DNA from: an uncultured Planctomycetia bacterium | GTDB taxonomy: Bacteria; Omnitrophota; Gorgyraeia; Duberdicusellales; 4484-171 | Length of the DNA: 39,611 bases | Assembly (NCBI GenBank): GCA_964536195.1 | Contig: CAZHVO010000003.1 | Location: forward strand, 1,797-41,407 | Reading direction: 5' to 3' | Shown: in pieces, positions 10,059 through 28,714 of the stretch | Layout of the letters: the number at the start of each line of letters is the position of its first letter | Position numbering within the stretch: the first letter of the stretch is position 1 | Notes under the pieces: model-generated | What the model saw: the letters and a program-made list of their open reading frames with translations, nothing else | Databases searched by the model: none | Told to the model about the DNA's origin: nothing | Translations under genes and position numbers: made by a program

Positions 10059-10472
10059 ATGAAGTTTCAGTTAAGCTGTAAAATTTATCCTTTTGAGGCT
10101 GTTCTAAATGCTTCCTATACTTTTATTGACCGTGTCTATATTTTTTTGGATAGTAATTTAAAGGAGGACAAGGTAATAGTTTCTTTTAAAGAAAAACAAA
10201 AACTTTCTCCCAAAAAATTGGAAGATTTGCGCGGAGAATTTATGAATGAGCTATTGCATTGCGTTTTGAGATACAAGATAAGTAAAAATAACAAAAAGAT
10301 TAGAGAATATATTGTCGGACGCGCTTTATATTCCGCTCTGCCTTTACCAATGGAAGAAGCTCTGCTGGGAGAGGATTCGGGGAAACTAGATTATCAGGAA
10401 GACCCTTTAGGTATTACTATACCTTGGGAAGAGAAGCATGGAAAGAAAAAAAATGCTAAATCTAAAGTTTAA
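10059..10472 (+). CDS. hxsD: His-Xaa-Ser system protein HxsD
   Basis: KIYPFEAVLNASYTFIDRVYIFL and EFMNELLHCVLRYKI..IREYIVGRAL; just upstream of HxsB; SD aggag. Confidence 0.8.
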   Translation: MKFQLSCKIYPFEAVLNASYTFIDRVYIFLDSNLKEDKVIVSFKEKQKLSPKKLEDLRGEFMNELLHCVLRYKISKNNKKIREYIVGRALYSALPLPMEEALLGEDSGKLDYQEDPLGITIPWEEKHGKKKNAKSKV

Positions 10473-10665
10473 TACTAAAATATATAAAATGAAGGCAATT
10501 CAAGAAGCCATTTTGGCCTATTCTGATAGGGCGAAATTTTCTCTATCTAATGATAAAAGGTATATACAGGTGCGGATAAATAAAGTAGACTCGGAAATTA
10601 AGGCTATTATTGGTGATGAGTTTGCCAATTATGTATTGGGGTTGACTAAAAAATGGATACAATAA
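10438..10665 (+). CDS. Second, short HxsD-like protein (alternative start 10453)
   Basis: KIYKMKAIQEAILAY...DEFANYVLGL parallels KIY...EFMNELL of the upstream HxsD; overlaps both neighbours. Confidence 0.7.
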   Translation: MERKKMLNLKFNTKIYKMKAIQEAILAYSDRAKFSLSNDKRYIQVRINKVDSEIKAIIGDEFANYVLGLTKKWIQ

Positions 10666-12125
10666 TTGAGAATGTAGATAGGCAAAAGGTTGGTTTTTGC
10701 AGGTTTAAAAAACTGAACGATAAGTATTTGCTTACCAATGATGTTGGCGATTACTGTTTTTTAACTCCTGTGTATTTTAAGGCATTGTTTTTGGGTAAGC
10801 TTGAGCAGATAGAGAAAGATAATCAGCATAAGTATCAGGAACTTGTTGATAAGGGTTTTGTGCGTAGTCTATTAGATTTCGATAGGTTGATTGAGAAATA
10901 TTCTACAAAGAATATGGCTTTGAAGGAAGGGCCGGTTCTGCATATAATTGTAGTAACACTAAGATGCAATCATGCGTGTGTTTATTGTCAATCTAACGCC
11001 GGCGGAGTTGATAATAAAACGTTGGATATGGATATATCCGTAGCAAGGAAGGTTGTTGATAGAATTTTTGAATCTCCCGGATCAAACATTACTATTGAAT
11101 TTCAGGGGGGAGAGCCTATGCTTAACTTTAAAACTGTGAAATTTATTGTTGAGTATGCACGAGAAAAAAATAAAGAGAAAAAGAAAAGTTTAAAGATAAC
11201 AATGGTTTCTAACTTAACTTGTGCTACCGAAAAGATAATAGCATTTTTAATAAAAAATGATGTTGATATTTGCACCTCTATTGACGGCCCGGAATATGTT
11301 CATAATAAAAACCGGATTATTTTCGATAAAAACAAGAATAGCTATAAAAGAACAGTAAAATGGCTGAAGAAAATCGAAGATAAGCTTGGTGCGAAAAAGT
11401 TTAAACATAGACCTAATGCTTTGTTGACGTTGACAAAACGTTCTTTTACTTATTCTAAGGAGATTGTTGACGGATATGTAAAGATTGGTTTGGACGGTAT
11501 CCATTTGAGACCAATGAATACATTTAGTTTGTCTAAAAAAGTGCCTCGCACTTTAAGCTATACCTGGGCTGATTTTATTGCTTTTTATAGAAAGACAGTT
11601 GATTATATTATTGAACTAAATCTTAAAAAGAGATTTTTCTATGAGAGGACGGCAGTGGTATTTTTGATTAAGATTCTTACTGATAACGACCCGAATTACT
11701 TGGATATTCGTTCTCCCTGCGGGGCCGGTATTGGACAGCTGGCCTACGATTATAATGGAAATGTATATACCTGTGATGAAGGTAGAATGTTGAGCAGGAT
11801 TGGAGATGAGTCATTTAAACTAGGCAATGTAATGCATAATACTTACTCGGAGATGATTAATCACCCCACAGTTAAGGCAATGTGTGTTGCTTCTTGTTTA
11901 GATAATCTTCCCGGATGCAGCCAGTGTGTATATAAGCCGTATTGCGGTGTTTGTCCCTTACTGAATTATGCAGAACAAGGCAGTATTTTTATCCAGCAGC
12001 CTAAAAACGAGAAGTGCTTGATGCAAAACGCAATTTTAGATTATCTTTTTGAAAAATTAGAAAATAAAAGTTGCAAGGATGTATTTAAAAAATGGGTGGA
12101 CCATTTTATGTCTGGAAATCAATAG
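10653..12125 (+). CDS. hxsB: His-Xaa-Ser system radical SAM/SPASM maturase HxsB
   Basis: YLLTNDVG, LHIIVVTLRCNHACVYC, EFQGGEP, DIRSPCGAGIGQLAYDYNGNVYTCDEGRM, CSQCVYKPYCGVCP. Confidence 0.9.
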   Translation: MDTIIENVDRQKVGFCRFKKLNDKYLLTNDVGDYCFLTPVYFKALFLGKLEQIEKDNQHKYQELVDKGFVRSLLDFDRLIEKYSTKNMALKEGPVLHIIVVTLRCNHACVYCQSNAGGVDNKTLDMDISVARKVVDRIFESPGSNITIEFQGGEPMLNFKTVKFIVEYAREKNKEKKKSLKITMVSNLTCATEKIIAFLIKNDVDICTSIDGPEYVHNKNRIIFDKNKNSYKRTVKWLKKIEDKLGAKKFKHRPNALLTLTKRSFTYSKEIVDGYVKIGLDGIHLRPMNTFSLSKKVPRTLSYTWADFIAFYRKTVDYIIELNLKKRFFYERTAVVFLIKILTDNDPNYLDIRSPCGAGIGQLAYDYNGNVYTCDEGRMLSRIGDESFKLGNVMHNTYSEMINHPTVKAMCVASCLDNLPGCSQCVYKPYCGVCPLLNYAEQGSIFIQQPKNEKCLMQNAILDYLFEKLENKSCKDVFKKWVDHFMSGNQ

Positions 12126-12139: not shown

Positions 12140-12844
12140 ATGTGTTTGAAAAAATTGATCCTTTTGGTAGCGATCGTTTGTATTGGTATGTTTTATTCAA
12201 ATATTATTTTTGCCGAAAGTTTAGAAGATTTAACAACTAATTTTAATATTGATACGATTGAAAAAGATGTTTTTCAAAGATATTCTAAAGCAGAAGGGTT
12301 GTTAGGTGCATATTTAATATGTACAGCAGCAGTGAGAGGTGACCAGACAGTGTGTGATGACCTAAATTCGGATGAAGCCCGGTTTTGTAGTAAGCAATTT
12401 AGCTCGATGCATAATTTTTATAGAGAGTTAGTTACAACAGGAACAGTTACTTCAAAAGCTATAGAAAGTTGTATGCAAACTGAAAACGGCGTAACATCCC
12501 AAGATTGTCGGGATTTGGCAGAGGCATTCATTTCTAAGGATGCGTCTATATGTGAAGTATCAGAATGTAGTGCGATAATAAAAAGAGACGTTGGGTCTTG
12601 TAAGGAAGATAAAGGATGTCGGGATAGGGTTTATTATATAAAAGCAGTTGAAAAGAATAATGCCAAAAGTTGTGATAAGATAAAAGATGAATCTCTTAGA
12701 ATGCTTTGTATGGGAAGTATTACCCTAGATGAGAAGATATGTAAACAATGTAGTGGTTTTAAAAAATTTATTGAGCGGTATCATGAAGACCTAATAAAAA
12801 TGGAGGTGGGCGATGAAGAAGAAAATCAGGCTACCCAAGATTAG
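12140..12844 (+). CDS. Secreted Cys-rich repeat protein
   Basis: Start at ATG 12140 after SD aggagg; signal peptide ending IIFA|E; 13 Cys in the mature part with five (D/N)xxxC units. Confidence 0.7.
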   Translation: MCLKKLILLVAIVCIGMFYSNIIFAESLEDLTTNFNIDTIEKDVFQRYSKAEGLLGAYLICTAAVRGDQTVCDDLNSDEARFCSKQFSSMHNFYRELVTTGTVTSKAIESCMQTENGVTSQDCRDLAEAFISKDASICEVSECSAIIKRDVGSCKEDKGCRDRVYYIKAVEKNNAKSCDKIKDESLRMLCMGSITLDEKICKQCSGFKKFIERYHEDLIKMEVGDEEENQATQD

Positions 12845-13109
12845 GATAGAAATAAAGGATTTCCTTTTAAGTGAAGAGGGGAAAATTACTAAAAAGAATA
12901 TTGCTAAGTTGGGGATGTCTTTAGCAGTTATGGCGATAATGTTTAAACCCCAGGCTGCTAGTGCAGCTCATTCTAGCCATGGTAACCACGGTAATGCTTT
13001 TTTTTCTGGCGATAGAGGTGGGCATACTTCAGGAACACCACATGCTTCGCATGGTTCACATGGCTCGCATGGTTCACATGGCTCGCATGGTTCGCATGGA
13101 CAATGGTAA
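12813..13109 (+). CDS. hxsA: His-Xaa-Ser repeat RiPP precursor (HxsA-type)
   Basis: SD ggaggtgg; 51-aa leader, then AHSSHGNHGNAFFSGDRGGHTSGTPHAS(HGS)x5HGQW; lies among HxsD/HxsB/HxsC-like genes. Confidence 0.9.
   Translation: MKKKIRLPKIRIEIKDFLLSEEGKITKKNIAKLGMSLAVMAIMFKPQAASAAHSSHGNHGNAFFSGDRGGHTSGTPHASHGSHGSHGSHGSHGSHGQW
13041..13103 (+). repeat. 9-bp tandem repeat x7 encoding His-x-Ser triplets
   Basis: catgcttcg catggttca catggctcg catggttca catggctcg catggttcg catggacaa; the 18-mer catggttcacatggctcg occurs twice exactly. Confidence 0.95.
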
Positions 13110-13118: not shown

Positions 13119-14072
13119 ATGCAACAGCTGATAATTGTATTGACCCACCGCTGCAACCTCAGGTGTCGATATTGCCCCGTTTTGCATAATTCCGCTACAA
13201 TAAATTATAATACTGCTATAATAGCCATTGATTTATTTTTAAATGGGCAAGATAGAAAATATTTAATTAAATTTTCGGGCGGAGAGCCGTTGTTAGAATT
13301 TACTTTATTGAAGGATATCGTAATATTTGCCAGAAATAAGGGGCTAAAATTAAATAAGAGTGTTCAGTTTCAAATAACGACAAATGGTATCTTGCTTAAT
13401 GATGCGGTTATAAATTTTTTCAAAAAAAGTAAAGATATTGAATTAATAGTAAGCCTGGACGGCAGCAGAAATACTCAGCTGAAGAATAGAATATCGGTTG
13501 ATAAAAAATTAAATTCTTCTGACAGTATCATCTTTCAAAAGCAGAAAATTCTTTCGATCCCTCGCGTAATCATCAATATGGTAGTTGCGCCTAATGAGGT
13601 GAAGAAATTCTATCGTAATTTTCTTTATATTTTGAAACTGGATTTTTGCCGCTTTATTTTTTTACCGGCCTATTTCGTTTACTGGAATAAAGAAAAAATT
13701 AATAAATTAAAAAAGGAATTTTGTAGGATAGCGGAATTTATAAGTAAAAATAAAAATAGAATAAATATTTATGTTAAAAACTTAGATTTGATAAGCCCAG
13801 CGCCTCTTTTTAATAGTGGGTTAGTCATTGATTGTAATGGAGATGTGTTTAGTGACAATTTGGTTCTTTCCCAACGATTTGCTTATCTGCGTAGGCAGCT
13901 TAGGGTTGGAAACATTAAGGATTTCTCTTTTAAACCTTTCTTTTTTAGACAATCGATCGATATAAATCACTTAATTGACCGGGTTACTCCCAAGTCTATT
14001 CTAGGGTCAACTAGAACAGTTGATCGTGTCTTAACGGATTTTGTTAACCGCCTAAAAAATGAAACGAGCTGA
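13119..14072 (+). CDS. Radical SAM protein (group B here: no C-terminal Cys cluster)
   Basis: LTHRCNLRCRYC, FSGGEP, TTNG, SLDG; C-terminal NSGLVIDCNGDVF. Confidence 0.88.
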   Translation: MQQLIIVLTHRCNLRCRYCPVLHNSATINYNTAIIAIDLFLNGQDRKYLIKFSGGEPLLEFTLLKDIVIFARNKGLKLNKSVQFQITTNGILLNDAVINFFKKSKDIELIVSLDGSRNTQLKNRISVDKKLNSSDSIIFQKQKILSIPRVIINMVVAPNEVKKFYRNFLYILKLDFCRFIFLPAYFVYWNKEKINKLKKEFCRIAEFISKNKNRINIYVKNLDLISPAPLFNSGLVIDCNGDVFSDNLVLSQRFAYLRRQLRVGNIKDFSFKPFFFRQSIDINHLIDRVTPKSILGSTRTVDRVLTDFVNRLKNETS

Positions 14073-14949
14073 TATTAAAACCGGGTTTAATTGTAATAAT
14101 CATTGTCGGTTTTGTGTCCAGGGTAATAAGAGAGTTTTGTATGGCGATAAAAGCACGGTAGAAATAAAGAAAGCTTTACAGGAGGCAAGAAACGATTGCG
14201 ATAGTGTGGTATTTACCGGCGGAGAACCAACAGTCAGGAAAGATATTATTGATTTGGTAAGATATGCTAAGAGTTTAGAATTTGAGACTATTCAGATACA
14301 GAGTAACGGCCGGATGTTTTGCTATGAGAAATTCTGTACGGCAATAATTATTGCCGGAGCGAATGAATTTTCTCCGGCAATTCACGGTCATATCGCACAA
14401 CTCCATGACTTTTTGACTGCTTCAAAGGGTAGTTTTAAGCAGAGTATCACTGGAATTAAAAATTTAAAGAAACGGGGGCAAAAAGTAATCACTAACACTG
14501 TTATTACGAAATCAAATTATCGGCATTTACCGGAAATTGCGCGACTTCTATCTTATTTAAAAGTAGATCAGTATCAATTTGCCTTTGCTCATGCTTTAGG
14601 AACGGCTGGAGAAAATTTTGAATCAATCATTCCTCGAATGTCAATGATTATGCCTTATGTGAAAGAAGGCTTGGATATTGGAATCGTAGCCGGAAAAAAA
14701 GTTATGACCGAAGCAATTCCTTATTGCCTTATGCAGGGGTATGAAGAATACATTGCTGAAAAGATTATCCCTGATACAAAAATATACGATTATGATCGTA
14801 TAATAGATGATTTTACAGAAATACGTCGAAAAGAAGGCAAATTAAAGGGGCCGAAATGCAAACAATGTAAACATTTCCAATATTGCGAAGGCCCCTGGCG
14901 GGAATATCCCGAAAAATTTGGCTGGACAGAATTTGTGCCAAAAATGTGA
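14059..14949 (+). CDS. Radical SAM protein, HxsC-like (group A here)
   Basis: CNNHCRFC, FTGGEPT, IPYC, CKQCKHFQYCEG. Confidence 0.88.
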   Translation: MKRADIKTGFNCNNHCRFCVQGNKRVLYGDKSTVEIKKALQEARNDCDSVVFTGGEPTVRKDIIDLVRYAKSLEFETIQIQSNGRMFCYEKFCTAIIIAGANEFSPAIHGHIAQLHDFLTASKGSFKQSITGIKNLKKRGQKVITNTVITKSNYRHLPEIARLLSYLKVDQYQFAFAHALGTAGENFESIIPRMSMIMPYVKEGLDIGIVAGKKVMTEAIPYCLMQGYEEYIAEKIIPDTKIYDYDRIIDDFTEIRRKEGKLKGPKCKQCKHFQYCEGPWREYPEKFGWTEFVPKM

Positions 14950-15036
14950 GATCAAATATTGGATCTCTGTAATCAGAGGACATTTGTAAAAGCTTACCTA
15001 AGAGAGGGATAATTTTTAGGAGCGAGGGCAGCTATA

Positions 15037-15957
15037 TTGGGAAGCGGCGAATTCCTTCATGTCTCTATTAACAATCGATGCAATAATAATTGCATATTTT
15101 GCATGGAAACTGATGCTAAAAATTTGATTCCTCCCTCTTCTAAGAGGCTATCCATTCTCTTCCAGAAAGCAATAAAAAAAACAGATAGTGTTTTATTTAC
15201 TGGACCTGAACCCACAGTAAATAAATCTTTGGTAAATTATATAAAGATGGCCAAAAAAATAGGATACAAAGATATACGTTTAGTAACCAATGGCCGTCTT
15301 CTTTGTCACTTTGATTATGCTCGTGAATTACTAAAATCTGGTTTAACAGAATTCAACATTGCTCTTCATGGGAGTAAAAGATCGATTCATGATGCCATGA
15401 CAAGAACACCTCATAGCTTTGATCAAACAATCAAAGGATGCTATAATCTATCGAAGTTGAAGTCAGATTATCTATTTCGATGGTATATTAGTTTTACACT
15501 TACCAAAGTTAACTCACCCGATTTGTACAACTTTCTTAAATTAACAGTCTTCTTAAAAGGAGTTAATGGGAGTATTATTAATACGGTGATTCCTCAAGGA
15601 GGAGGATTGATCTTTTTTAAGAATTTAATTTCAAACTATACTGATCTAGCTGATTCTTTTAAATCAGCAATTGAGCGGTTAAAGAAGAATCCTAAAGTTC
15701 AATCAAAAGACCGATTCAATATCAGCATACTTGGTTTACCAGTCTGTTTGTTGGTAGGCTATGAGAAATATGCCAGCGAGTACGAGAGCATCTTAATGAA
15801 TTCCGGAAACAAAAAAATCAATATTAGAAAAAGAGAACGTTCCAAAAAATTAAAAAGAGAAAAATGTAAAGAGTGCAAATATGATTCGTTTTGTGAAGGA
15901 GTTTGGTGGCGATATATAAAAATGAAAGGTTGGCGGGAATTTCACCCGATTAAATAA
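15037..15957 (+). CDS. Radical SAM protein, HxsC-like (group A)
   Basis: CNNNCIFC, variant FTGPEPT, LPVC, CKECKYDSFCEG; TTG start uncertain. Confidence 0.85.
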   Translation: MGSGEFLHVSINNRCNNNCIFCMETDAKNLIPPSSKRLSILFQKAIKKTDSVLFTGPEPTVNKSLVNYIKMAKKIGYKDIRLVTNGRLLCHFDYARELLKSGLTEFNIALHGSKRSIHDAMTRTPHSFDQTIKGCYNLSKLKSDYLFRWYISFTLTKVNSPDLYNFLKLTVFLKGVNGSIINTVIPQGGGLIFFKNLISNYTDLADSFKSAIERLKKNPKVQSKDRFNISILGLPVCLLVGYEKYASEYESILMNSGNKKINIRKRERSKKLKREKCKECKYDSFCEGVWWRYIKMKGWREFHPIK

Positions 15958-15989
15958 TGTGTTAAAAATTTTATCCTAACTGAATAAAA

Positions 15990-18800
15990 ATGAATGAAAA
16001 TACATCAAAGACTAGATATCGTGATAAAATCGTTGGTCGAACCGATAGCTTTCCGAATGCAATTTGTTTGGTAAATAAATTCAAAAAGACAATTAAAAGA
16101 CCAGAATTGTTAAGGAAAGTTAAAACAATTTTTTCAACTTCAAGAAAGAATAGCATTGTATGCACGCTAGCTGATTATCGAGCCCTTGTAGATGTATATC
16201 AGCGGAGTCGAAATCGAAAAGCCGAAAAAAGCAGTTCTAAATCTAAAATTCTTCTTTTCAGGAATATTTTTAATTCTTCGGGTAAAGAGAAAAACCAAAG
16301 TTTTAGCTCAGCAACTCTTTATTTGGCTTCTGGCCTAAAGAAGGCAGGTTTTAGAGTCGTTTTTAGCAATTCCAAGATTTCTTTGGAGAACGACGATTTT
16401 ATTACGCAAAAAGAGGAGTTGGAGAAAATTTTGAGAGCGAATTCCGACATAAACATTATCGGTATTTCTCTCTGTGAAGACTTTTTCGAAAAGGCTAAAG
16501 AATTAATTAAATTTCTAAGAAAAAGAACGAAGGCTTTTATCGCAGTGGGTGGTGTAATGCCAACACTAACTCCTGAACATGTTTTTGTTCATTTACCGGA
16601 TGCGAATTTTTTGGTCAGGGGCGCTGGTGAAGAAGTTCTTCCCAAAATGGCTAAAATTTTAGGAGGAAAGAATATTGATTCTTCTTTCGACAAAGGAGAG
16701 GTAGAAAATCTTTTAAAACTTAAAGGCGTTCTTTTTCAGAATAAATTTATTTTTATTTCTGCAGCTTTAGATAAAGTTAATAATATTACAGATTACGACT
16801 GTTCTTTTCTTGATTTCAGTTTCCTGAAGGCGGAAAATATTACTAACGGTCTAATTCTTTTTACTTCCCGAGGATGTTTTAATAATTGTTTTTTTTGCAC
16901 TTCGCCGGGAAAGGGTGAATATGTAGCTAAAAGTTTTAAGAATTTAAAAACAATTATTAAGAACTATAAGCAGAGGCTCAACGAAATTTTTAAGAAAGAT
17001 ATCCCACCTTCTGCTTTACGGATTTCTTTCTATGATGATGATTTTCTCGCCGATACTCAAAGAGCTAAATCTTTTTTCTTGTATCTGAAAAAACAACCAT
17101 TCCGCATAAATTTTTTCCAAACCGGCATAAACTCTTTTTTTGAAAAAGTTGGAAAGAAGTACTCCGGCAAGTTAGACCGGGGACTTCTTAAGAGTTTGGC
17201 TCCGGAAATTTTTGACCCCTCAAAAGAAACAAATATTTATATAGGACTTGAAAATATTTCCGATAGAGAACTTACAAGATTAGGCAAGGGGTACAGCCAT
17301 AAAAAAGCCGAAAAAATAATAAATACATTAGCTCTGAAGAGAATTAAAATCACTTGTCACTTTATAGCTTCAAATCAATTAACTTCTTTAGACAATATTG
17401 TAGAAAATTTATTCAAGTTTTCTGTTTTCCAAGCTCTTTACGGACAATATTTTAAAGTTTTAACTCCAATTATTCCTTACCTTGTGTCTCTTTATCCATC
17501 GGCAAGTTATAAAATTTCTTTAATAAATAAACGAGAAAAATTTATTAATATTCGTCGTAATCTATTAGTGGAAAATTATCCAGAGTATGATTATTCTCTA
17601 GTAGAGAATGATATTCCTATGAGCAAGGCTGTACAAGCCTTGGTTCCTTTACTTTATGATTCATTTTTGGCTAATAAGAATTATTTTAAAATTTTAGATG
17701 AGATGTTATCTAATCTCCTGCTTTTACAAGAAAAAATTCCTTCGGCACAAAAAGAGATATCAAATGTGGTTAGGAAATATAATAATTATTACCTGATGAT
17801 TGATAAAAAGGTATCTCGTATGGTAACCCCCGGCCGGAATAACCTGCAATTAATGATTACTAAGCGATGCCACCTTCGCTGTAAATATTGTCCGATTGTT
17901 AAAAAAAATGAAGACATGAGCGAAGATGTGCTGTATCAAGCAATTAATTTTCTTTTTACCGCTTCCGGAGACACTCTTCGCTTGGATTTTACTGGTGGAG
18001 AGCCGTTGTTAAGATTTGATTTGGTAAAAAAAGGAGTTGAGTACGCTAAAAAATTAGCCCGAAAGAAAAACAAAAATATTTCTTTTTACCTGGTAACAAA
18101 TCTTATTGCGATGGAGGATGATATTGCTGATTTTTTGGCCAGAGAAAATTTTTTCCTGGAATTGTCAGTAGACGGGGAAGAAAAATTCCATAATCTTTAT
18201 AAAATCGGAAGAGACCATAAAATAAACGCTTATCAATCAACAATAACTAAATTGCAGAAAGTATTTTCAAGAAAAATAAATAATTATGCGGTGATGGTAG
18301 TAAATCCAGCCACTGTTAGATATCTGTGGCGTAATTTTTACCATATTATGAAATTAGGATTTAGAAGAATCGGTGTTAATTATGCCCTTTGCTCAACATG
18401 GGAAGCAGATGCCCGAAGGGAATTTTTCCGACAATTTGATTTAATTAAGGAAGCTTTACACCTCCATATTAAAAAAGGGATAGTCAGCTTAACTAATCTA
18501 GAGTCGAGAAACGAACCGGCTATTCTAAATAGTGAAATAATGGTTGACGTTGACGGGAGAGTGCGACTATTGACCGATTACCTTTTTGAAAAAGAAATTA
18601 AAAAGAAACCGCCCTTTTTAGGAGAAATAGGAAACTTTAAGAATATAAATGAAATTTTTTTGACGCAGTTTCGAACTTTATCCCGGTTGTTTCGGTATCA
18701 GGCAACTCCTAAAATAAAAAAGGTTATTCTTAATAATATCGAAATGGGAAATTTGACAAAAATCTATTTTGAAGAATGGAAAAGCAAATTAAAGCAATAA
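15990..18800 (+). CDS. Cobalamin-binding radical SAM domain fused to a group B radical SAM domain
   Basis: LYLASGLKKAG, VGGVMPT, VRGAGEE, TSRGCFNNCFFC, FYDDDF; second domain ITKRCHLRCKYC, FTGGEP, EPAILNSEIMVDVDG. Confidence 0.85.
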   Translation: MNENTSKTRYRDKIVGRTDSFPNAICLVNKFKKTIKRPELLRKVKTIFSTSRKNSIVCTLADYRALVDVYQRSRNRKAEKSSSKSKILLFRNIFNSSGKEKNQSFSSATLYLASGLKKAGFRVVFSNSKISLENDDFITQKEELEKILRANSDINIIGISLCEDFFEKAKELIKFLRKRTKAFIAVGGVMPTLTPEHVFVHLPDANFLVRGAGEEVLPKMAKILGGKNIDSSFDKGEVENLLKLKGVLFQNKFIFISAALDKVNNITDYDCSFLDFSFLKAENITNGLILFTSRGCFNNCFFCTSPGKGEYVAKSFKNLKTIIKNYKQRLNEIFKKDIPPSALRISFYDDDFLADTQRAKSFFLYLKKQPFRINFFQTGINSFFEKVGKKYSGKLDRGLLKSLAPEIFDPSKETNIYIGLENISDRELTRLGKGYSHKKAEKIINTLALKRIKITCHFIASNQLTSLDNIVENLFKFSVFQALYGQYFKVLTPIIPYLVSLYPSASYKISLINKREKFINIRRNLLVENYPEYDYSLVENDIPMSKAVQALVPLLYDSFLANKNYFKILDEMLSNLLLLQEKIPSAQKEISNVVRKYNNYYLMIDKKVSRMVTPGRNNLQLMITKRCHLRCKYCPIVKKNEDMSEDVLYQAINFLFTASGDTLRLDFTGGEPLLRFDLVKKGVEYAKKLARKKNKNISFYLVTNLIAMEDDIADFLARENFFLELSVDGEEKFHNLYKIGRDHKINAYQSTITKLQKVFSRKINNYAVMVVNPATVRYLWRNFYHIMKLGFRRIGVNYALCSTWEADARREFFRQFDLIKEALHLHIKKGIVSLTNLESRNEPAILNSEIMVDVDGRVRLLTDYLFEKEIKKKPPFLGEIGNFKNINEIFLTQFRTLSRLFRYQATPKIKKVILNNIEMGNLTKIYFEEWKSKLKQ

Positions 18801-20011
18801 TTAATTCTTTTATCGATGATTTCGATCAGCAAAAGCTGGTTTTGCTGGAGCATATACTTTTTTCTCTATTGTTGGAGAGAGAAGCGTATTTACTTCAAAG
18901 AAAAAAAAGCACATATACAAAGAAAATAGCAGGAATCCTATCTCGTTATGCTAATTACCGGTATCTAATTTACGAAACAATGTCAAAGAAGAAAAAAGTT
19001 GATAAAAACTTTCTTATGAGAAATATTTATATCTCCCCTCAGCGCCTTATCGTTCTTCTGACTCATAATTGTCAATTACGCTGCGAGTATTGTCGGGTAA
19101 GCAAATTCTCATCTTTCATGAATAAAGAAACTTTATTTAAAGCGATCGATTTACTGTTTACTTCCAATTCACGAGAGCTTCAACTTCAGTTTTTTGGCGG
19201 TGAGCCTCTTCTAAAATTTGATTTGATCAAAAAAGCAGTTATTTATGGAGAAAAAGCTGCTAAACGGCTGGAAAAAGATCTAGTTTTTATCCTTACGACC
19301 AACGGTATTGAGCTGACAAAAGAAAAGGTAGATTTTCTAAAAAAGCACCGGTTTATTATCGAGTATAGCATAGATGGTGAGGTTGAGGCTCAGCTTAAGA
19401 CCAGGATGGCCTCTAACAATAAAAATTATTATTCACATATGATAGATAATTTTGAGTATCTTAAACAGTCAGGCATACGCCACTATTCTATTAGCGTGGT
19501 CATGCCGCATACTGTTTCGCCAATGTTTAGAAACTTTAAGCATTTGGTAGATATTGGGTTTGAGAGTTTACAGATGAATTATTCTTTAGGGTTTTTCTGG
19601 CCCAAGAAGGAGGTAAAAACTCTTTTTCGACAAACAGAGCAAATTCTTAACTATGTTAAGAAACACAGGGATATTCAATTCATTAATTTAACTTCTGCGA
19701 GGAAAGAGCCGGTAGTCCTTAACGCTGAGCTGACGGTAGATTGTGATGGTGGGATATATATGGAATCGGGAATTTGCCTTGAGGAAGATTTTATTGAGAT
19801 GAAAAACAAATTTTTGGTAACCGATCTAGAGAAAGCGGTAAACGTCAATTTGTACGGTTCCACTCCTTTTCAAAATTTTTACCGCTTATCAGAAATTTAT
19901 GGCGCGGCAAACCCCAAATTTAGAGAAATTATTCTAAATAATATTTTCTTGGGAAAAAAATACAACTTATTTTTAAAAAATGAAAAAAGTAAAATTTTCC
20001 ATTCCTTATAA
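18776..20011 (+). CDS. Radical SAM protein (group B) with an N-terminal helical extension
   Basis: LTHNCQLRCEYC, FFGGEP, TTNG, SIDG, EPVVLNAELTVDCDG. Confidence 0.88.
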   Translation: MEKQIKAIINSFIDDFDQQKLVLLEHILFSLLLEREAYLLQRKKSTYTKKIAGILSRYANYRYLIYETMSKKKKVDKNFLMRNIYISPQRLIVLLTHNCQLRCEYCRVSKFSSFMNKETLFKAIDLLFTSNSRELQLQFFGGEPLLKFDLIKKAVIYGEKAAKRLEKDLVFILTTNGIELTKEKVDFLKKHRFIIEYSIDGEVEAQLKTRMASNNKNYYSHMIDNFEYLKQSGIRHYSISVVMPHTVSPMFRNFKHLVDIGFESLQMNYSLGFFWPKKEVKTLFRQTEQILNYVKKHRDIQFINLTSARKEPVVLNAELTVDCDGGIYMESGICLEEDFIEMKNKFLVTDLEKAVNVNLYGSTPFQNFYRLSEIYGAANPKFREIILNNIFLGKKYNLFLKNEKSKIFHSL

Positions 20012-20972
20012 TGGAGATATTGAGTTAATTAAATGGGCGATTAAAAATAAGCAGGTTGAGGAAGTTTATTTTGCTGGTCCGCAAGGGTATGATTTTTCTG
20101 ATCCATACGAGAACGAAAAAAAACATAGCCTTTACGATGTCAGTGCTTTAATGAGGCTTTGTAACAAAAATAAAGTAGATACGAATTTATTAATTAATAA
20201 GAATGTAATGTTTTTTGAGTCTTTGGCGAGGATAAAGAAAAGTATTAATATTTTGCAAAAAGCAGGGAGTTTAGATTATATTACTGTAGCTGATGTTTTT
20301 CTTGCTAAGTGGCTAAAAGAAAATTTTCCTTTAATTAAATTGCAATCGTCTATTTATATGGGGATAAACAATTTTTTGAAGGTAAAAGAAGGTATAAAAG
20401 CAGGCATATCCAAATTTTGTTTAGATCCTTCAATAAACCGTAATGGACAGGAGTTAAGAAAAATTGCCGGTTTAAAAAAGCATTATCCTTTTTTGCGGAT
20501 CAAACTGTTAGGATTGATTATGTGCTATCAGAATTGTTTTTATTCTTTAAGACATAGCGCTTTGCCGATTTTTAGTAGACAAATCAAGAGTAAGGGGGGG
20601 TACTTGGGAGAGCAGTTTGATTGTTATAAATGCCATTATTTGCCATCAGGAATAGTAGATGAGATTAAAAGGCCCTACGTTCGTCCAGAAGATGTTAGCT
20701 ATTACGAAAAAGAAAAGTTGACCGATTCAATAAAGTTGGCTTATCGTAATGAGCCCAGTGCTTCATTGAAGCTAAAAATGATAAGTTACTTTAATCGTAG
20801 TTATAATGGTAACTTATTTGATTTAATGGATTCTATTAATTATGATAATTTATTTTGTGATAATAAAAGGATACCTAAAGATTTCGCTAAAAAGGTTGTG
20901 GAGTGTAATAAAGATTGTTTTTCGTGTGGTTATTGTGAGTTTATCGCTAAAAGATACCTTAAAGCCAGGTGA
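19980..20972 (+). CDS. U32 'peptidase' family Fe-S protein
   Basis: FSIPYN..EEVYFA, ITVAD, LQSS, LDPSINR, CYQNCFY..H, VRPED..YY, IKLAYR; C-terminal CNKDCFSCGYC. Confidence 0.75.
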   Translation: MKKVKFSIPYNGDIELIKWAIKNKQVEEVYFAGPQGYDFSDPYENEKKHSLYDVSALMRLCNKNKVDTNLLINKNVMFFESLARIKKSINILQKAGSLDYITVADVFLAKWLKENFPLIKLQSSIYMGINNFLKVKEGIKAGISKFCLDPSINRNGQELRKIAGLKKHYPFLRIKLLGLIMCYQNCFYSLRHSALPIFSRQIKSKGGYLGEQFDCYKCHYLPSGIVDEIKRPYVRPEDVSYYEKEKLTDSIKLAYRNEPSASLKLKMISYFNRSYNGNLFDLMDSINYDNLFCDNKRIPKDFAKKVVECNKDCFSCGYCEFIAKRYLKAR

Positions 20973-23170
20973 AAATGTCTAAAATTGTTTTGATAAATCC
21001 TGTAAATCTTGACCCCCCGCCTAATTATTTTGGGCCGCCATATGGGTTAAGTCTTATAGCGGCTAATCTTTTAAAATGCAACAAGAAAGTTACCGCTTAT
21101 GACTTTGACTTTCAACCGATGCCGGTAATGCTGCAGGCAATCCCGGAAATACTAAAAAAAGATAAACCTGATTATATAGGTATTGCAACACAAAGTTGTG
21201 CTAGAGGTTCAGTATATCAGATCATTAGGGCAATAAAAAAAAATGATAACAAGGTAAAGATAATATTAGGTGGGCCATTTGCGTCATTGAAATTTGAGTT
21301 GCTTTTGCGCAATTTTGCTGTTGATTTTGTAATAATCGGCGATGGAGAGATAACTTTAAATCAGCTTATTGATTGTATTGACAATAAAGATAACTTGAGT
21401 GATGTGGATGGTATAGCATATATAGGAAGTGGTAAGCTTTGTGTGACTCAGGAAAGAGAAAAAATAAGCAATTTAGATCAATTACTTTACCCTGCTTTTC
21501 ATCTTTTTAAAGACTTTAATGAGAGAATGGCCTTTCCTAAAAATCTTGGCCCTTTGCCAAATTTTTTATTAGGTAAACGGTGTACAACCTTAAAAGATGC
21601 ATTGTTAATGTTGTCTTCCAGAGGGTGTATTTATAGCTGTAACTTTTGTCCAATGAGCAAGATAACTAAGCATAAAATAAGATTTCATAGCCCGGAGTAT
21701 TTTGTAAATATGGTTGAGTATTTTCATGAAAAGTATAGTATTAGTGATTTTGTTTTTGGCGATAATTTCTTTACATTAAGAAAAGAAAGAGTTCTGAAAA
21801 TTTGTGAGTTGATATTACAGAAAAAGCTAAAAATAAAATGGGGTTGTATGACTCGTTCTGATTATGTTGACGAGGAGATGTTGTCGATAATGGCGAAAGC
21901 TGGCTGTTTTGAAATATCTTATGGAGTTGAAAGTGGATCAGTTTTGATTCAGAAAAAAATAGGTAAAAATCTTGATCTAGCTAAAACCAAAGAATCATTT
22001 TTAATGACGGAAAAGTTTGGCATTAGAAGTGTGCTTATGCTTATGATTGGGAATAGTGGAGAAAATGTAAATACGATAAAGCAGACTATGAAATTTGTCC
22101 GCGGAATGAGGCCGGATAGTATTTTGGTTAAAAAAGTAAAGGTGTATCCCGGTACAAAAATTCATGATATTTTTGAACAAAAAGGTTTGATAGATGACAA
22201 TTATTATTTAGGCGATGACTACCATCCGCCTACCTTTACTTTGGCGCATAGCCAAAATAAACTTAATGATTTTTCAGATATGATTAAGTCGAGGAGGGTA
22301 TATATAGACTCTACTAACGTTTCAAACAACAATTCATTGTTTAGTGATTTAGATAGCGGTTTAAGAGATAAAGATCTTGATACCATTAAAAAAGAACTTG
22401 CATTAGCTTTAACTAGGGCAGAACTGGTGGTACTGACCGGAGGCGAGTTTTTTCTGCGTAAAGATTTTTTTGATATTCTGCGATTTGCTATCGACTTAAA
22501 TCTTCATCATCTTTATATAAAAAGCAACGCAAGAATATTTTTATACAATAAGTTTTTAGAAAAATTGATGAATATAGAATGTCTGGAAAAAATTTTAGTT
22601 CCTTTTTACGGCGAAGAGGCTTATCACGATCAAGTTTGCCGGGTTAAAGGAGCTTTTTCCCAAACTGTAAAAGGCATTAAGAATTTAAAATTAAGATTTC
22701 CTTACATCAAAGTCCAGGCACAAATACCAATTTTACTTAATAATTTTGAAAGAATTCAGGATTTAACAGTAATGCTTTCAAATATGGGGGTTGATGAGTT
22801 TCACTATCTATTTGGCCGTAGTTGCGATGGGATTACGAAAGTAAGTCCGAATAATTTACCGCTTATCAGCAAAGCTATGAAGAGTATTGCAACGGCAAGT
22901 AAGTGGTTGGTTAAAAAAAATAAAGAAATATCTTTTGAGGGTGTGCCTTTATGTATAGCCGGAAAGTACAAATACTATTGTTGCGATTTCACGCAGCCCT
23001 TTGACGAGGTAATAACATTTGATAATAAAGTCGTGGGTTGTATTGAATTGAGAAAAAAATATAAGAAAAAGTATTTTTTTTGTAGAAAATGCAAAGAGGG
23101 TGATTTGTGTGAAGGTGTTTGGAGAAATTATGCGAAAATAGCAAAATCTGATGAGCTTAAACCATACTGA
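20969..23170 (+). CDS. B12-dependent radical SAM (class B methyltransferase-like) fused to a degenerate HxsC-like domain
   Basis: IVLINP, PPYGL, ILGGPFAS, IGDGE, SSRGCIYSCNFC, YGVESGS; C-domain SNNNSLFS, LTGGE, VPLC, CRKCKEGDLCEG. Confidence 0.87.
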   Translation: MKMSKIVLINPVNLDPPPNYFGPPYGLSLIAANLLKCNKKVTAYDFDFQPMPVMLQAIPEILKKDKPDYIGIATQSCARGSVYQIIRAIKKNDNKVKIILGGPFASLKFELLLRNFAVDFVIIGDGEITLNQLIDCIDNKDNLSDVDGIAYIGSGKLCVTQEREKISNLDQLLYPAFHLFKDFNERMAFPKNLGPLPNFLLGKRCTTLKDALLMLSSRGCIYSCNFCPMSKITKHKIRFHSPEYFVNMVEYFHEKYSISDFVFGDNFFTLRKERVLKICELILQKKLKIKWGCMTRSDYVDEEMLSIMAKAGCFEISYGVESGSVLIQKKIGKNLDLAKTKESFLMTEKFGIRSVLMLMIGNSGENVNTIKQTMKFVRGMRPDSILVKKVKVYPGTKIHDIFEQKGLIDDNYYLGDDYHPPTFTLAHSQNKLNDFSDMIKSRRVYIDSTNVSNNNSLFSDLDSGLRDKDLDTIKKELALALTRAELVVLTGGEFFLRKDFFDILRFAIDLNLHHLYIKSNARIFLYNKFLEKLMNIECLEKILVPFYGEEAYHDQVCRVKGAFSQTVKGIKNLKLRFPYIKVQAQIPILLNNFERIQDLTVMLSNMGVDEFHYLFGRSCDGITKVSPNNLPLISKAMKSIATASKWLVKKNKEISFEGVPLCIAGKYKYYCCDFTQPFDEVITFDNKVVGCIELRKKYKKKYFFCRKCKEGDLCEGVWRNYAKIAKSDELKPY

Positions 23171-26100
23171 AAATAATAGTGTTGCAAATATGCTGATTTG
23201 TATTACAGCAAAATGCCAATTAGATTGTTCTTATTGCAGTCTTGACCGGGAGGTTCAGGATATTACTGAGTCGATGCTATACGATGCATTGGACTTGTTG
23301 TTTACAGCCAAGAAAGATATCCTGGAGATACAATTTTTTGGCGGTGAACCATTGTTGAGGTTTGATCTTATGGAAAAGGCAGTTAATTATGCAACGGAAA
23401 AAAATCAAAAAATAGGAAAAAATATCAGGTATGTTTTAACTACCAATGGTTTAATCTTGAATGATGAAAATTGCCAGTTTTTAAAACAGCATGATTTTAC
23501 ATTGTTACTAAGTATTGATGGCATGCCAGAAACACAAATTAAGAATAGGCCTTTGAGTTTTTCGGGTAAAACAAATTATTTTGAGTCAATTTCAAAAGCT
23601 TTAGCTTTTCTTAAAGTTTTCAAAATCGATTATTTTGTCAATATGGTTTTTATGCCTGATGATGTAAAAAAGATGACTGAAAACGTAGAATACCTTATCG
23701 ATTTGGGCGTGAAGGATATACAACTAGCTTATGCGGTTGGACAGTATTTTAGTGATAATAATATTTTTAGATCTGTGGATGAATTTACTAAAATAGCTCA
23801 GTTGGCTAAGGAGAGAAAAGTACGTTTTCGTAATTTAGACAATGATAATGAACCGATATTGTTTTCTCCACAAGTAGTCGTGAGTCCTTTGGGTAAAGTT
23901 TATGTTGGGTGTGCGTTGGTTTTAGAAAAGAAATTTAAAGAATTCAATGATATTTTTTATTACGATCAGTTAAATAATGGGTTAACCTTTGAAGATGTTT
24001 GCCGGACAAATTCTGAGCAGTTTGCCTTGCTTGAGAAAAATAGGGATAAAATAGATAAAGCTTTATTTAGCAATTTATCTTTGGGTGTCGCTTTGGATAT
24101 CTTTGCTAAACATTATCGCATAAGCAAAGATAAGGGCTTAAATATGTACGAGGCCCAGAGTAATTATCTATACCATGATAAACTTATGCTAATGCTTACC
24201 CATAAATGCCAGATGTGTTGTCGTTATTGCTATCTTGATTTTACTCATCCCGACATCAAAGAAGAGGTAATTTATAAGGCTATAGATGTTTTGTTTTTTT
24301 CACAGAAGAAGGATAGTGTCGAGATACAATTTTTTGGCGGTGAACCTTTGCTGAGATTTGACCTTATGAAAAAGACCATAAATTATGCAGAGAAAAAATG
24401 TGTAGAGGCCGGGAAAAAAGTAAAGTATCTCTTAGCTACTAATGGAATTGGGTTAGGTGCTAAGGAATTGGAATATTTGTCTAATTATCAGGTTGGTTTT
24501 ATTCTTAGCATTGACGGTAAAAGCCGTACTCAAAGATATAATCGACCGTTATTAAACAAGAAGAAAAATTATCCTTTTATTCGATTTACGCGGGTTATCA
24601 ATAACTTGGTAGGCCAAAAACGGGATTTCTTTATTAATCTTGTTGTTGGTCCCAAAAATGTAAATGCTTTAGTTGACAATGCTTTGTTTTTTTTAAAGTT
24701 GGGCGTAAAGAATATAAGACTATCTTATGAACTTGGAGTTTTTTGGGAAAAAAAATATATCATCCGATATTGTATCGCTTCATTTAAGATTATGTGGGAG
24801 TGGATAAAACATGGTGATAATAATTTAATAAATTTACATGTTGATGATGAGCCTTCTCTTATATCTCCGGTGCTTACAGTTGATTACGAGGGAAGTGTTT
24901 ATAGTGGGTGTACAATAACTTTAGAGAAGTTATTTCCGGCTTTTCGAAAAATTAATTATATTGACAATATATGTAATGTTAAAAGAATGGAAGATATGAG
25001 TCGAACCAGGAAAGAAGTAGTGAGTAAAATGTGGAGTTTATCTGAAAAACGTGAGTTGGTGTTTAATAATCTTATGGTCGGTAAACTTGCCGAGCAGCAT
25101 TTCCATAAATTTAACGTGGAAGAAAAGAAAGACGTCGACTCAGACTTGCCTAAATATAAGGTAAGCGGGCTAATGCTAATGTGTACTTATCAGTGCCAAT
25201 TAAAATGTGGATATTGCGAGATAGAACAATGTGATAAGTCAATGAAGCAGAAGGTAGTTGAGGATGCTATTGATTTGCTGTTGACCACTAAGGGCAAAGA
25301 GTGTTTGTTGAGATTTTGGGGCGGAGAGCCTTTGCTTGAATGGGAACTTATTAAAAAAGGGATTAAGGCCGGAATTAAGAAAGCCAAAATAAAAAACAAA
25401 AAGCTAAAATTTTCCATTACTACTAATGGATTACTGTTGGATGAAGAGAAACTTGATTTTTTAAAAAAGAATTCAGTGGAAATAATGTTCTCTATGGATG
25501 GAGATGAATTAGCAAATAAAACTTTTAGGCTAAAAGGGGTTAATGAAAAACTTTATACTGAGTTGGAGAATAACTTAAAGCTTTTAGCTAATTCAGGTAT
25601 CGCCCATTTTGTTAATTTAGTGGTTTTTCCGGATAACGTAGAACACTTGGCTAAAAATATCAGTTTTATCAAACGATTAGGAGTTCAGCGGATACAGATT
25701 GGTTATCAGAATGCTGTATTTTGGGGTGCAGATAAGGTTAAGGCGATGCAAGATCAAATAAGAAAGTTTTTTGAGGCAAATGGAGGAGAAGAGCTATTGA
25801 TGAATTTCGTTAATGATTGTGAACCGACAATGCTTAGTAATGAAATATTGGTGGATGTGGACGGAAAACTTTATTTGGACGGAGCTGTTTTCATGGAAAA
25901 AGATTTTCCTGCCCTGCGAAAGCAATATTTTTTAGGTGATCTTAAGGCTATTAAGCGTGTTGATGACCTGTATTTAACTAAAAAAGATGTATTCAATAAA
26001 TTCAAAAAAGCATGTAATGCTAGGCAGCGTAAGCTATTAGATAATAATATTGATCTTGGTCTGGAAATGGAATATTTTTACAATGATTTTTCTTCTCGTT

Positions 26101-27032: not shown

Positions 27033-28125
27033 TACCCAGCAATTATTAAAAAGATTAGCAGAGTTGGGCATCAAGGATCCTTTAAGTAGTAATACTTTGG
27101 GAGAAGTGTACTTAATGTTATCTCTGCGTTGCAATTTACGATGTAAGGTATGTTCTTGGTGGGGGGCAAAAGGCCCTTGCAGGGATAGAGGGTTTATGGA
27201 TAAATATGCTTCATCGTTGACCTTGAAAGAGCTTAAACCTTTCATGGAAGATATTATAAGCTTTTCTCCGAAAACAATTACTTTTTCTGGAGGAGAACCG
27301 CTTATGTATAAAAAATGGTATGTTTTGGCCGATTATTTTAAGGCAAGGGGAGTCAAAGTGTCTTTAACCACAAACGGTGTATTTTTTCTAAATAATTTCG
27401 ATAAATTGGTTAATGTTGTAGACGAGATAAACCTTTCATTAGGCGGCCCCCCTTCTATACTGAATCTTATCCGAGACAATCGCCCCAGCCATTTTAATAA
27501 GATACTGCAGGGGTTGAAAAAAATAAGTGATTTTAAGCGAAACAACCGCAATAAGCCTTTGTTAGGGATACTTTATACTATTTCAGATATAAGCTATGGC
27601 TATATGTCGGAACTTATAGAATTTTTACAAGATAACCGTATTCCAATTGACCGGTATTGTTTTCAACATTTGATGTTTATCGGCCCGGATACATTTAAGG
27701 CTCAGCAAAGAATATTTAAAAATAAGTTCGGGATTACATCTTTAGATTTGTGGCAGGGATATACTTATCTCCCCAAGAAAATAGATTTTAAAAAATTCAG
27801 AGATGAGATAAAAAAAGTAAAAAAAATGGCAAATGTAAGATTCAGCCCTGATTTTCGTCTTCACGAAATAGAAGACTATTATAAATGTAATAGAGGGGCA
27901 TTACATTATGCCGATTACTGTACCGCTCCTTGGCATCAGATAGATATGATGCCTAACGGAGATGTCTATACCTGTCATGATTATTTTATCGGTAATATAA
28001 AAAATTCGTCATTTAAGGATATATGGAACGGACAAAAAGCAAAGAATTTAAGAAAATATCTTTTGAATAAATTGTTTCCCGGGTGTAAGGGGTGTTTTTA
28101 TCATTATTGCGATAGGGTAGATTAG
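27013..28125 (+). CDS. Radical SAM protein with SPASM/twitch domain
   Basis: CNLRCKVC, FSGGEP, CTAPW..MPNGDVYTC..IGNI..FKDIWNG..CKGC. Confidence 0.88.
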   Translation: MARKSVNTQQLLKRLAELGIKDPLSSNTLGEVYLMLSLRCNLRCKVCSWWGAKGPCRDRGFMDKYASSLTLKELKPFMEDIISFSPKTITFSGGEPLMYKKWYVLADYFKARGVKVSLTTNGVFFLNNFDKLVNVVDEINLSLGGPPSILNLIRDNRPSHFNKILQGLKKISDFKRNNRNKPLLGILYTISDISYGYMSELIEFLQDNRIPIDRYCFQHLMFIGPDTFKAQQRIFKNKFGITSLDLWQGYTYLPKKIDFKKFRDEIKKVKKMANVRFSPDFRLHEIEDYYKCNRGALHYADYCTAPWHQIDMMPNGDVYTCHDYFIGNIKNSSFKDIWNGQKAKNLRKYLLNKLFPGCKGCFYHYCDRVD

Positions 28126-28148
28126 CTTAAAGAAGGTAGGGAAAGTGT

Positions 28149-28177
28149 TTGTTGATTCTGAGGTTTCGTGGTATATT
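28149..28177 (+). promoter_or_regulatory. Possible internal promoter for the second half of the cluster
   Basis: TTGTTG (28149-28154), 17 bp, TATATT (28172-28177) preceded by TG; strong SD aaggaggt before 28203. Confidence 0.4.
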
Positions 28178-28202
28178 TATCTATAGATAATAAAGGAGGT
28201 GT

Positions 28203-28697: not shown

Positions 28698-28714
28698 CGA
28701 GAGTATTTAAAGAG

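Follow-up and report, generated by a model that had tools for sequence, protein, structure and literature searches.

Within a stretch of 39,611 nucleotides from an uncultured bacterium of the phylum Omnitrophota (assembly GCA_964536195.1, contig CAZHVO010000003.1, positions 1,797 to 41,407 of the forward strand; this whole stretch is called the window here, and positions are counted from its first letter), we found a gene cluster of the His-Xaa-Ser (HXS) radical-SAM type in which two genes form the subject of this report. The first encodes a short histidine-rich precursor peptide with a conserved N-terminal leader, and the second, 22 kb away on the same strand, encodes a divergent membrane protein of the A24/GxGD aspartyl peptidase class. 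Between and around them lie genes for HxsD, an HxsD-like protein, the maturase HxsB and a long array of radical-SAM proteins (Table 1). The genome is a 1.17-Mb assembly of 124 contigs with an estimated completeness of 91.7%.

Table 1. Features of the HXS cluster, with positions in the window
Feature	Positions	Strand	Basis
HxsD	10059..10472	+	TIGR03976, 66.1 bits (cut-off 50)
HxsD-like protein	10438..10665	+	NF038315, 73.3 bits (cut-off 41)
HxsB radical SAM/SPASM maturase	10653..12125	+	TIGR03978, 502.3 bits (cut-off 370)
HxsA4-family precursor open reading frame	12813..13109	+	98 aa plus stop; NCBIfam NF038313 match
Conserved leader M1-G23: basic start, P-x-I-[KR]-x, amphipathic helix, F17-L-L-S-E-E-G23	12813..12881	+	
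Basic linker K24-K32 (K-I-T-K-K-N-I-A-K)	12882..12908	+	Anchored conservation counts
Hydrophobic (h) region L33-F44, including the conserved G34	12909..12944	+	Hydrophobicity; helix 27-43 of the AlphaFold2 model
C-terminal (c) region of the signal-like segment, K45-A51 (K-P-Q-A-A-S-A), putative signal peptidase I site after A51	12945..12965	+	
His/Ser/Gly-rich core A52-W98	12966..13106	+	Translation; covered by the HxsA4 profile
Array of 13 further radical-SAM-matching open reading frames	13119..35219	+	NCBIfam and Pfam matches
Divergent A24/GxGD membrane aspartyl peptidase homologue, 318 aa	35225..36181	+	PF01478, invariant Asp, FlaK match
Putative catalytic D28 and D107 (in W-G-A-G-D) of the peptidase homologue	35306-35308 and 35543-35545	+	Open reading frame 35225

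The open reading frame (ORF) at 12813-13109 is the histidine-rich precursor of a variant HXS radical-SAM system, of the HxsA4 type. Its translation starts MKKKIRLPKIRIEIKDFLLSEEGKITKKNIAKLGMSLAVMAIMFKPQAASAAHSS, and a GGAGG at 12802-12806 stands 6 nt ahead of its ATG. The NCBIfam model NF038313 (HisXaaSer_A4) matches residues 7-98 over profile positions 2-93 of 93 with 71.1 bits against a cut-off of 55 (E 1.1e-19; 70.2 bits in the genome-level search), and because the match spans these residues, the N-terminal motif described below lies inside it and is part of the curated family model. The HxsA3 model gives the precursor 46.7 bits, under its cut-off of 65, and a Pfam scan of the ORF found no family. 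Between residues 53 and 95 the core holds eight H-x-S triplets (HSS, HTS, HAS and five HGS, the latter consecutive), so that the three marks by which HxsA4 membership was judged, namely the profile score, tandem H-x-S triplets and a context of HxsB, HxsD and radical-SAM genes, are all present. A preliminary description of the window, written by a model from the letters and a list of their ORFs, had given the translation and the interval 12813-12965 correctly, the latter being exactly residues 1-51 and ending at ...ASA; it had missed the HxsA4 family membership.

At the other end of the protein, the terminal residue is W (49), C (23), Y (14) or F (5) in 91 of the 117 members of up to 130 aa, and the usual endings are GQW, GGWC or GSW, the precursor itself ending in GQW at 13098-13106. 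Some leader-bearing proteins are long, P0155 among them, as is a 527-aa frame with long H-S-Q / S-C-H repeats (L054, 9977-11557), and a few have Hint/intein-type domains after the repeats (Intein_splicing 2, Hint 2, best E 5.1e-06).

A word-based search with residues 1-56 returned six proteins, each with D-F-L-L-S-E-E-G-K-I, and an exhaustive phmmer search over 1.84 billion cluster representatives returned 309 proteins at E<=0.001 (47 of them at E<=1e-10), which puts the family at 309 representatives at 50% identity. For the counts that follow we used 155 sequences, the query and 154 relatives (the best 150 of the 309 phmmer matches plus the word-search proteins) that are 33-69% identical; the relatives were chosen by whole-query similarity, which inflates conservation somewhat, but identities still reach down to 33%. 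The pattern F-x3-[ED]-x-[GA]-x-[IVM] occurs near the N-terminus of all 155. When the sequences are anchored on G23, position -6 is F in 149 and Y in the other 6, position -2 is E in 147, position -1 is E or D in 151, and the G23 position itself is G in 146 and A in the other 9. Conservation continues on both sides, with I at +2 in 131 sequences and K or R at +4, +5 and +9 in 140, 86 and 103, and with an upstream P-x-I-K-K element whose P (-15) is kept in 136 of 154 and whose K/R at -12 and -11 are kept in 136 and 140 of 154. On these alignment counts, the F-x-x-x-E-E-G motif, which the preliminary description had picked out of this one sequence, is conserved far beyond chance across its homologues.

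A second conserved glycine, G34, had gone unflagged there; it lies eleven residues past G23 at the start of the h-region and is G in 137, A in 10 and S in 6 of the 155. In an AlphaFold2 (AF2) model of the precursor, helices span residues 8-19 and 27-43, with G23 in the break between them and G34 inside the second. A hidden Markov model of the leader finds the precursor as the sole matching ORF of the genome (E 1.4e-15; next best 0.39). MCM_C winged-helix matches to residues 13-43, seen in 15 of 150 members with a best E of 0.0088, were below threshold and were taken as noise.

Past the motif, the sequence takes on the features of a secretory signal peptide, and the bipartite leader that had been proposed stands in this form: a conserved motif on the cytoplasmic side, and after it an h/c region that resembles a signal peptide and ends in A-x-A. 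The ten residues after G23 have a mean Kyte-Doolittle value of -0.23, and the ten after G34 one of +2.21. The uncharged run after G34 measures 10-13 residues in 107 of the 155 sequences and at most 15 in 131, a length usual in the h-region of a Sec signal but low for a transmembrane helix that is to be stable. A strict A-x-A is found in 92, with the first His of the core 1-3 residues later in 63 of those 92, and a small -3/-1 pair is found in all 155, although this last is a weak test. The precursor itself shows, on simple feature counts, the basic K24-K32, the hydrophobic L33-F44 and the KPQAASA of a Sec-type signal, and the genome has a signal peptidase I (S26) gene (PF10502, 162.4 bits). 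The segment is thus predicted, from features of this simple kind, to fit a Sec/signal peptidase I signal.

The same segment had been read as an export signal of the twin-arginine translocation (Tat) type, with TKKNIAK as a twin-Lys variant followed by the h-region and ASA. Such a reading finds some encouragement in the family consensus [ST]-[KR]-K-x-[ILV]-[LAVI]-K, which resembles S/T-R-R-x-F-L-K, and in the fact that export after cytoplasmic modification would suit Tat. The K27 K28 pair of the precursor, however, is not a family feature: the two positions are KK in 60, KR in 5, RK in 8 and RR in 0 of the 155 sequences, so that both are basic in only 73, and the second is non-basic in 69. The length of the h-region and the Pro in the c-region fit Sec, and TatC (PF00902) gave no match at E<=1 in this genome, 91.7% complete as it is, compared with matches in 12 of 14 control genomes. 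We rejected a Tat signal on the residue counts and the lack of a TatC match, and regard it as extremely improbable.

Scarcely more credible is the idea that the precursor is a genuine Flp/type IVc prepilin and builds a His-rich fibre. Flp leaders have acidic residues ahead of the Gly, and the F-L-x-x-E-x-G leader resembles them. Like the Flp/Tad prepilins and their TadV/CpaA peptidases, the present pair combines a short N-in protein, a charged leader that ends in acidic residues and Gly, and a dedicated GxGD peptidase. The resemblance, which the preliminary description had stressed, does not amount to family membership. The FlaFind-type pattern of a charged -2, G or A at -1 and hydrophobic residues from +1 fits neither G23, where +1 is Lys, nor G34, where -2 is Leu. 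In place of a hydrophobic helix directly past G23 there is a polar stretch, and the hydrophobic run that follows stays within 15 residues in the 131 sequences already counted. A search of the genome with Flp_Fap (PF04964) at E<=1 gave no match at the precursor ORF and only three weak matches, all on contig C63, and Flp_Fap is not among the best 25 of the 81 Pfam families matched by 150 family members. Pilus ATPase or platform genes are likewise absent from the cluster's Pfam matches. The Flp processing motif is given as GXXXXEY in the portion of PMC10934763 used here, and none of the 155 sequences has GXXXXE[YF] at either the G23 or the G34 position.

Nor does the precursor look like the real Flp-like genes of this genome. 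Contig C63 (L056, G000; locus 694-1985, minus strand) carries five tandem small ORFs with [KR]-[AS]-Q-x-x-x-E-Y and then a stretch of about 20 hydrophobic residues; three of these ORFs give the weak Flp_Fap matches (13-15 bits), and a canonical PilD-like A24 peptidase with a Cys-rich N-terminal part is encoded on contig C72 (41 bits). The C63 ORFs are probably the genome's real type IVc pilins, served by the PilD-like enzyme of C72. Flp/Fap identity was accordingly rejected for the precursor, given the missing Flp_Fap match, the missing GXXXXE[YF] and the polar stretch after G23; as far as its sequence features tell, the precursor is neither a Flp prepilin nor a Tat substrate.

The membrane protein encoded at 35225-36181 had been called a peptidase in the preliminary description, with no evidence offered, and sequence and structure matches now place it as a divergent A24/GxGD homologue. 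By itself the ORF matched no Pfam family in hmmscan (PF01478 none at E<=10) and no NCBIfam model, and a phmmer search against the sequences of the PDB returned nothing relevant. Among 30 homologues that we collected from a sample of 401 genomes of the phylum, PF01478 matches 26 at E<=1 and 13 over its gathering score of 26.5 bits; the closest relative (L022, 54% identical) scores 30.3 bits, above the cut-off. In the protein atlas, ORF 35225 falls in a 98-member cluster (top score 0.95) with PF01478 on 29% of the members, and its ten best family-bearing matches are all PF01478. Seven residues, D28, W103, G106, D107, K109, L110 and F111 (the last six in W-G-A-G-D-A-K-L-F), are invariant in the 14 closest homologues, as is the C-terminal P-F-A-x-W-x-F-L-G helix in the same 14-sequence alignment, and the first Asp and the x-G-D are retained in eight representatives linked to HxsA3 precursors.

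An AF2 model of the protein (pLDDT 80.1, pTM 0.69), compared by VIA-align with 48,161 chains, gives the archaeal preflagellin peptidase FlaK (3s0x_B) as its best match, at Z 12.2 with a root-mean-square deviation of 3.2 Å over 166 of 186 residues and the next match at Z 5.8, a score to be read with the caveat that helical proteins with Z below about 13 may share a common arrangement only. The two proteins share the D...GxGD arrangement at 16% identity, and they differ in that ORF 35225 has about 150 extra helical residues between its GxGD half and the C-terminal P-F-A helix and that its putative substrate is no pilin or archaellin. By these comparisons ORF 35225 is a divergent A24/GxGD homologue with its predicted catalytic pair intact and the extra helical residues as its own addition. 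Positively charged loops after the first transmembrane helix and before W-G-A-G-D suggest that both Asp lie at the cytoplasmic face. In many A24-like proteins of these systems, among them L030, L031, L034 and the HxsA3-linked peptidases (for example L074, 6475-7500), the last helix is preceded by some 70 additional conserved residues (Y-N-Y-x-x-I-P-T ... G-L-P ... I-V-R-K-I-P-F-A), which may form a cytoplasmic substrate-binding domain; ORF 35225 is without them.

When we compared the distribution of leader and peptidase over the 401 genomes, a sample whose members are related to each other, the two proved closely linked. The HxsA4 model matches 17 genomes, two of them (G078 and G253) in the His repeat only, which leaves 15 with the N-terminus, and the peptidase query matches 35 of the 401. 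In 14 of the 15 leader genomes, an A24-like homologue lies on the precursor's contig, 0.05-30 kb off, and in the remaining one (G306) it lies on another contig. The two genes are adjacent in G242, where the order (locus L034) is HxsD-like, Cys-rich protein, precursor, peptidase; they are about 2 kb apart in G248 and G353 and 6-30 kb apart in the rest. The other 20 peptidase matches, in genomes without an HxsA4 leader match, are weaker except for those of G385 and G219, and both of these exceptions have the leader after all: G385 has two leader-bearing precursors directly upstream of the peptidase, after HxsB, and G219 has a leader-bearing ORF 7.5 kb upstream. Twelve of the 20 form a separate clade (97/99 support) of A24-like proteins of about 290 aa from the same phylum (L036, L038-L041, L043-L049), and no leader-bearing ORF was found in their 3.8-kb loci. 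The A24-like gene of L036 has radical-SAM-like ORFs and one kinase-like ORF on its flanks, and this third clade may serve another peptide system.

The HxsA3 subfamily gives the same picture from a second sample, metagenome contigs scanned for this subfamily, whose motif is E-[ED]-G-N-[IV]-x-R; 80 loci were kept. All 80 have the leader ORF and 52 an A24-like ORF, and wherever at least 5 kb is available upstream of the precursor (44 loci), the A24-like gene is present in every case (44 of 44), 3.5-4.8 kb upstream on the same strand. In one such operon (L074), the genes for HxsD, an HxsD-like protein, the A24-like protein, HxsC (309 bits, cut-off 268), HxsB (513, cut-off 370) and HxsA3 (104, cut-off 65) abut or overlap. 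A maximum-likelihood tree places the A3-linked peptidases in one group (96/89) and the A4-linked ones in another, together with four ungrouped rows (85/87). A further search of genome contigs with an 18-sequence alignment found five loci, three of them with an A24-like ORF in the flank; these are not independent, as the peptidase of L052 is identical to that of L024 and L051 may stem from a genome already in the phylum sample. The L052 record is titled as a Planctomycetia bin, whereas the genome of L024 is placed in the class of the window's genome, and taxon names in such titles are therefore unreliable as evidence for spread across phyla.

The HxsD-like family follows the same distribution. 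It is over its cut-off in 17 of the 401 genomes, and these take in every genome with an A24-like match at E < 1e-14 except G223 and G224, where the match is below the cut-off. The canonical HXS antiphage system of the Pseudomonadota, as set out in the portions of PMC13128918 drawn on here, has HxsA, HxsB, HxsC and HxsD as its components, with four proteins in >99.8% of cases; its HxsA has a signal peptide at residues 1-22 and acts in the periplasm, and N-terminal processing before periplasmic localisation needs HxsB, HxsC and HxsD. The two systems share HxsB, HxsD, radical-SAM enzymes of the HxsC type and an H-x-S repeat protein whose N-terminus carries an export signal. In contrast to canonical HxsA, the window's precursor is only 98 aa long, is without a peptidoglycan-binding domain and has a 33-residue conserved leader before the h-region, and its cluster adds an HxsD-like gene, an A24-like peptidase and the 13 radical-SAM ORFs. 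Because the HxsD-like protein has the same distribution and the canonical system has four proteins only, the extended leader, the A24-like peptidase and the HxsD-like protein appear to belong together in a single variant. The extra leader also coincides with the extra peptidase, in that canonical HxsA has a plain 22-residue signal peptide within its four-protein system. The earlier suggestion that an A24-type peptidase belongs to the leader therefore has strong comparative support, from the divergent A24/GxGD ORF and from its co-localisation with leaders in two subfamilies; of the preliminary interpretation as a whole, the composite leader and the A24 partner hold up, and the Tat-like and Flp-family readings do not.

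We put at roughly 55% the probability that a dedicated A24-type leader peptidase acts on the precursor, which is then exported through Sec and cut by signal peptidase I. We infer the action of this peptidase on the precursor, the place of the cuts and the order of events from the observed motif conservation, family membership, A24 nature and genomic linkage. In such a pathway, the leader would keep the precursor cytoplasmic for as long as its H-x-S core is being modified by HxsB and the numerous HxsC-like radical-SAM enzymes, a step in which HxsD and the HxsD-like protein may assist. The peptidase of 35225-36181 would then cut the leader on the cytoplasmic side of the membrane, after G23 or after G34. 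Loss of residues 1-23 would leave a textbook signal peptide, with KITKKNIAK as its n-region, LGMSLAVMAIMF as its h-region and KPQAASA as its c-region, and export by Sec with a signal peptidase I cut after A51 would release a 47-residue His-rich peptide outside the cytoplasm. The precursor is the candidate substrate because such a peptidase needs an N-in anchor, because no protein of the window's cluster other than the precursor offers one of class III type, and because the genome has a single leader ORF. The proposed order, modification in the cytoplasm, then trimming, then export, would match what is proposed for the canonical system in the portions of PMC13128918 cited above, and it would agree with the preliminary description's idea of an export signal unmasked by the cut.

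As for the position of the cut, each of the two candidates is by itself less likely than not; we tentatively favour G23, because the position carries only G or A, is preceded by two acidic residues as in Flp leaders and falls in the predicted helix break. G and A are the residues tolerated before a prepilin-type cut. G34, which is as well conserved, would lie at the membrane boundary, the usual A24 cut position, but it is predicted to be in the middle of a helix and has a hydrophobic residue at -2, and we consider a cut there somewhat less likely.

Several points weigh against the proposed pathway. The linkage evidence is all genomic, the sampled genomes are related to one another, and many of the metagenome loci repeat one another closely, with 41 different peptidase translations among 52 and at least 8 types of spacing. 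In known A24 substrates the cut falls immediately ahead of a hydrophobic helix of about 20 residues; unlike them, the precursor has ten mostly polar residues after G23 (mean Kyte-Doolittle -0.23), and G34 sits inside a helix that is continuous in the AF2 model. GXXXXE[YF] is found at neither glycine. The Sec assignment is one of simple features only, and if signal peptidase I frees the core by itself, there is no obvious need for an A24 cut. On the enzyme's side, PF01478 scored 14.2 bits with ORF 35225 in the genome-level search (E 0.035, profile 4-98 of 104), under the 26.5-bit cut-off, and a Foldseek search of the PDB with the AF2 model gave no match at E<=0.001, with FlaK at rank 33 (E 1.9). 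Finally, the HxsD-like protein co-occurs equally well and could be the reader of the motif instead.

This last point leads to an alternative that we consider possible but rather unlikely, in which F-L-x-S-E-E-G is the recognition sequence for the maturation machinery (the N-terminal domain of HxsB, HxsD or the HxsD-like protein), and the A24-like enzyme cuts after G34 or clears the leftover signal peptide after signal peptidase I, in the fashion of signal-peptide peptidases, which are themselves GxGD proteases. Leaders in the style of peptides that are synthesized on ribosomes and modified post-translationally (RiPPs) are usually more conserved than their cores, the HxsD-like protein tracks the leader as tightly as the peptidase does, and the G34 position is G, A or S in 153 of 155 sequences, directly ahead of the hydrophobic stretch of mean +2.21, where A24 enzymes normally cut. 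The G23 position, on the other hand, is G or A in all 155 and is predicted to fall in a loop, while G34 is placed mid-helix with a hydrophobic rather than charged residue at -2, and a housekeeping role in clearing signal peptides would not explain strict operon membership. We judge it quite improbable that the 35225 protein acts on another substrate, or serves export, immunity or some other non-proteolytic end, with the long leader being merely an extended n-region of a Sec signal peptide. The score of ORF 35225 under the PF01478 cut-off and the 12-member clade without leader ORFs in its 3.8-kb loci would agree with that, but both catalytic Asp are invariant, the linkage of 14 in 15 and 44 in 44 is tight, and the cluster offers no alternative class III-type substrate. 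Moreover, the genome has a separate, canonical PilD-like A24 peptidase and Flp-like pilin genes of its own elsewhere.

The cluster around the two genes has further features of its own. With HxsB and the 13 ORFs of the array, the region 10653-35219 contains 14 radical-SAM ORFs and is unusually large for HXS. The HxsC and HxsC4 models match at least eight ORFs of the array, all under their cut-offs. Its multi-domain proteins include ones of 936, 733, 1293 (with four radical-SAM stretches) and 697 aa, and two have B12-binding-type N-terminal parts. The array is broken by three ORFs without a radical-SAM match: one at 19980-20972 for which no family was found, one for an Lcl_C-domain protein (28203-28697, 111.6 bits) and one that is Cys-rich. 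A PQQ/BamB-like beta-propeller with a signal-like N-terminus is encoded at 36193-37293, 12 nt past the peptidase gene. Directly upstream of the precursor is an ORF for a Cys-rich protein of about 250 aa whose N-terminus holds a signal-like segment, both in the window (12092-12844, overlapping the precursor start by 32 nt) and in L034 (2651-3394); we considered these proteins as a component of the system and dropped them, as no similarity between the two copies could be detected (E 1.3).

Neither the HXS system nor the precursor family is new; what we did not find in the literature that we searched is a dedicated GxGD peptidase, its strict link with the leader motif and the role that this implies. 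No paper found there joined a prepilin peptidase, a radical-SAM enzyme and a precursor peptide, and none named HxsA3, HxsA4 or HxsC4. A24 peptidases are known for pilins, pseudopilins and archaellins, and RiPP leader removal is known for serine, cysteine and metalloproteases. In a 2023 review of RiPP leader proteases (PMC10885120), a term search of the text returned no occurrence of prepilin, A24, aspartyl or aspartic. The same review, in the portion used here, describes EpeP, an M50 metalloprotease of the membrane whose gene accompanies that of a radical-SAM-modified peptide and for which a coupling of cleavage to export is assumed; EpeP belongs to the zinc class, whereas ORF 35225 is an aspartyl protein of the GxGD class. 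If the proposal is true, the peptidase would be the first of the A24 class to take part in RiPP-like maturation, and the precursors would be a new, non-pilin class of substrates for A24 peptidases.

More speculatively, the HxsA3 and HxsA4 systems could have recruited a prepilin-peptidase-like GxGD protease whose cut after E-E-G serves as a checkpoint, turning a masked precursor into a Sec substrate only once it has been modified. As far as the 2026 HXS paper goes in the portions considered (PMC13128918), the question of N-terminal processing and export is left open for the canonical system. The leader motif, in association with the HxsD-like protein and the GxGD peptidase, would give a handle on how the N-terminus of HXS effectors is processed and on how export could be confined to precursors that have passed radical-SAM modification, and the pattern P-x-I-K-K-x-I-x-x-F-L-x-x-E-E-G-K-I-[ST]-K offers a sequence tag for the mining of further precursors. 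The partnership of leader and peptidase probably controls both the trimming of the peptide and its export.

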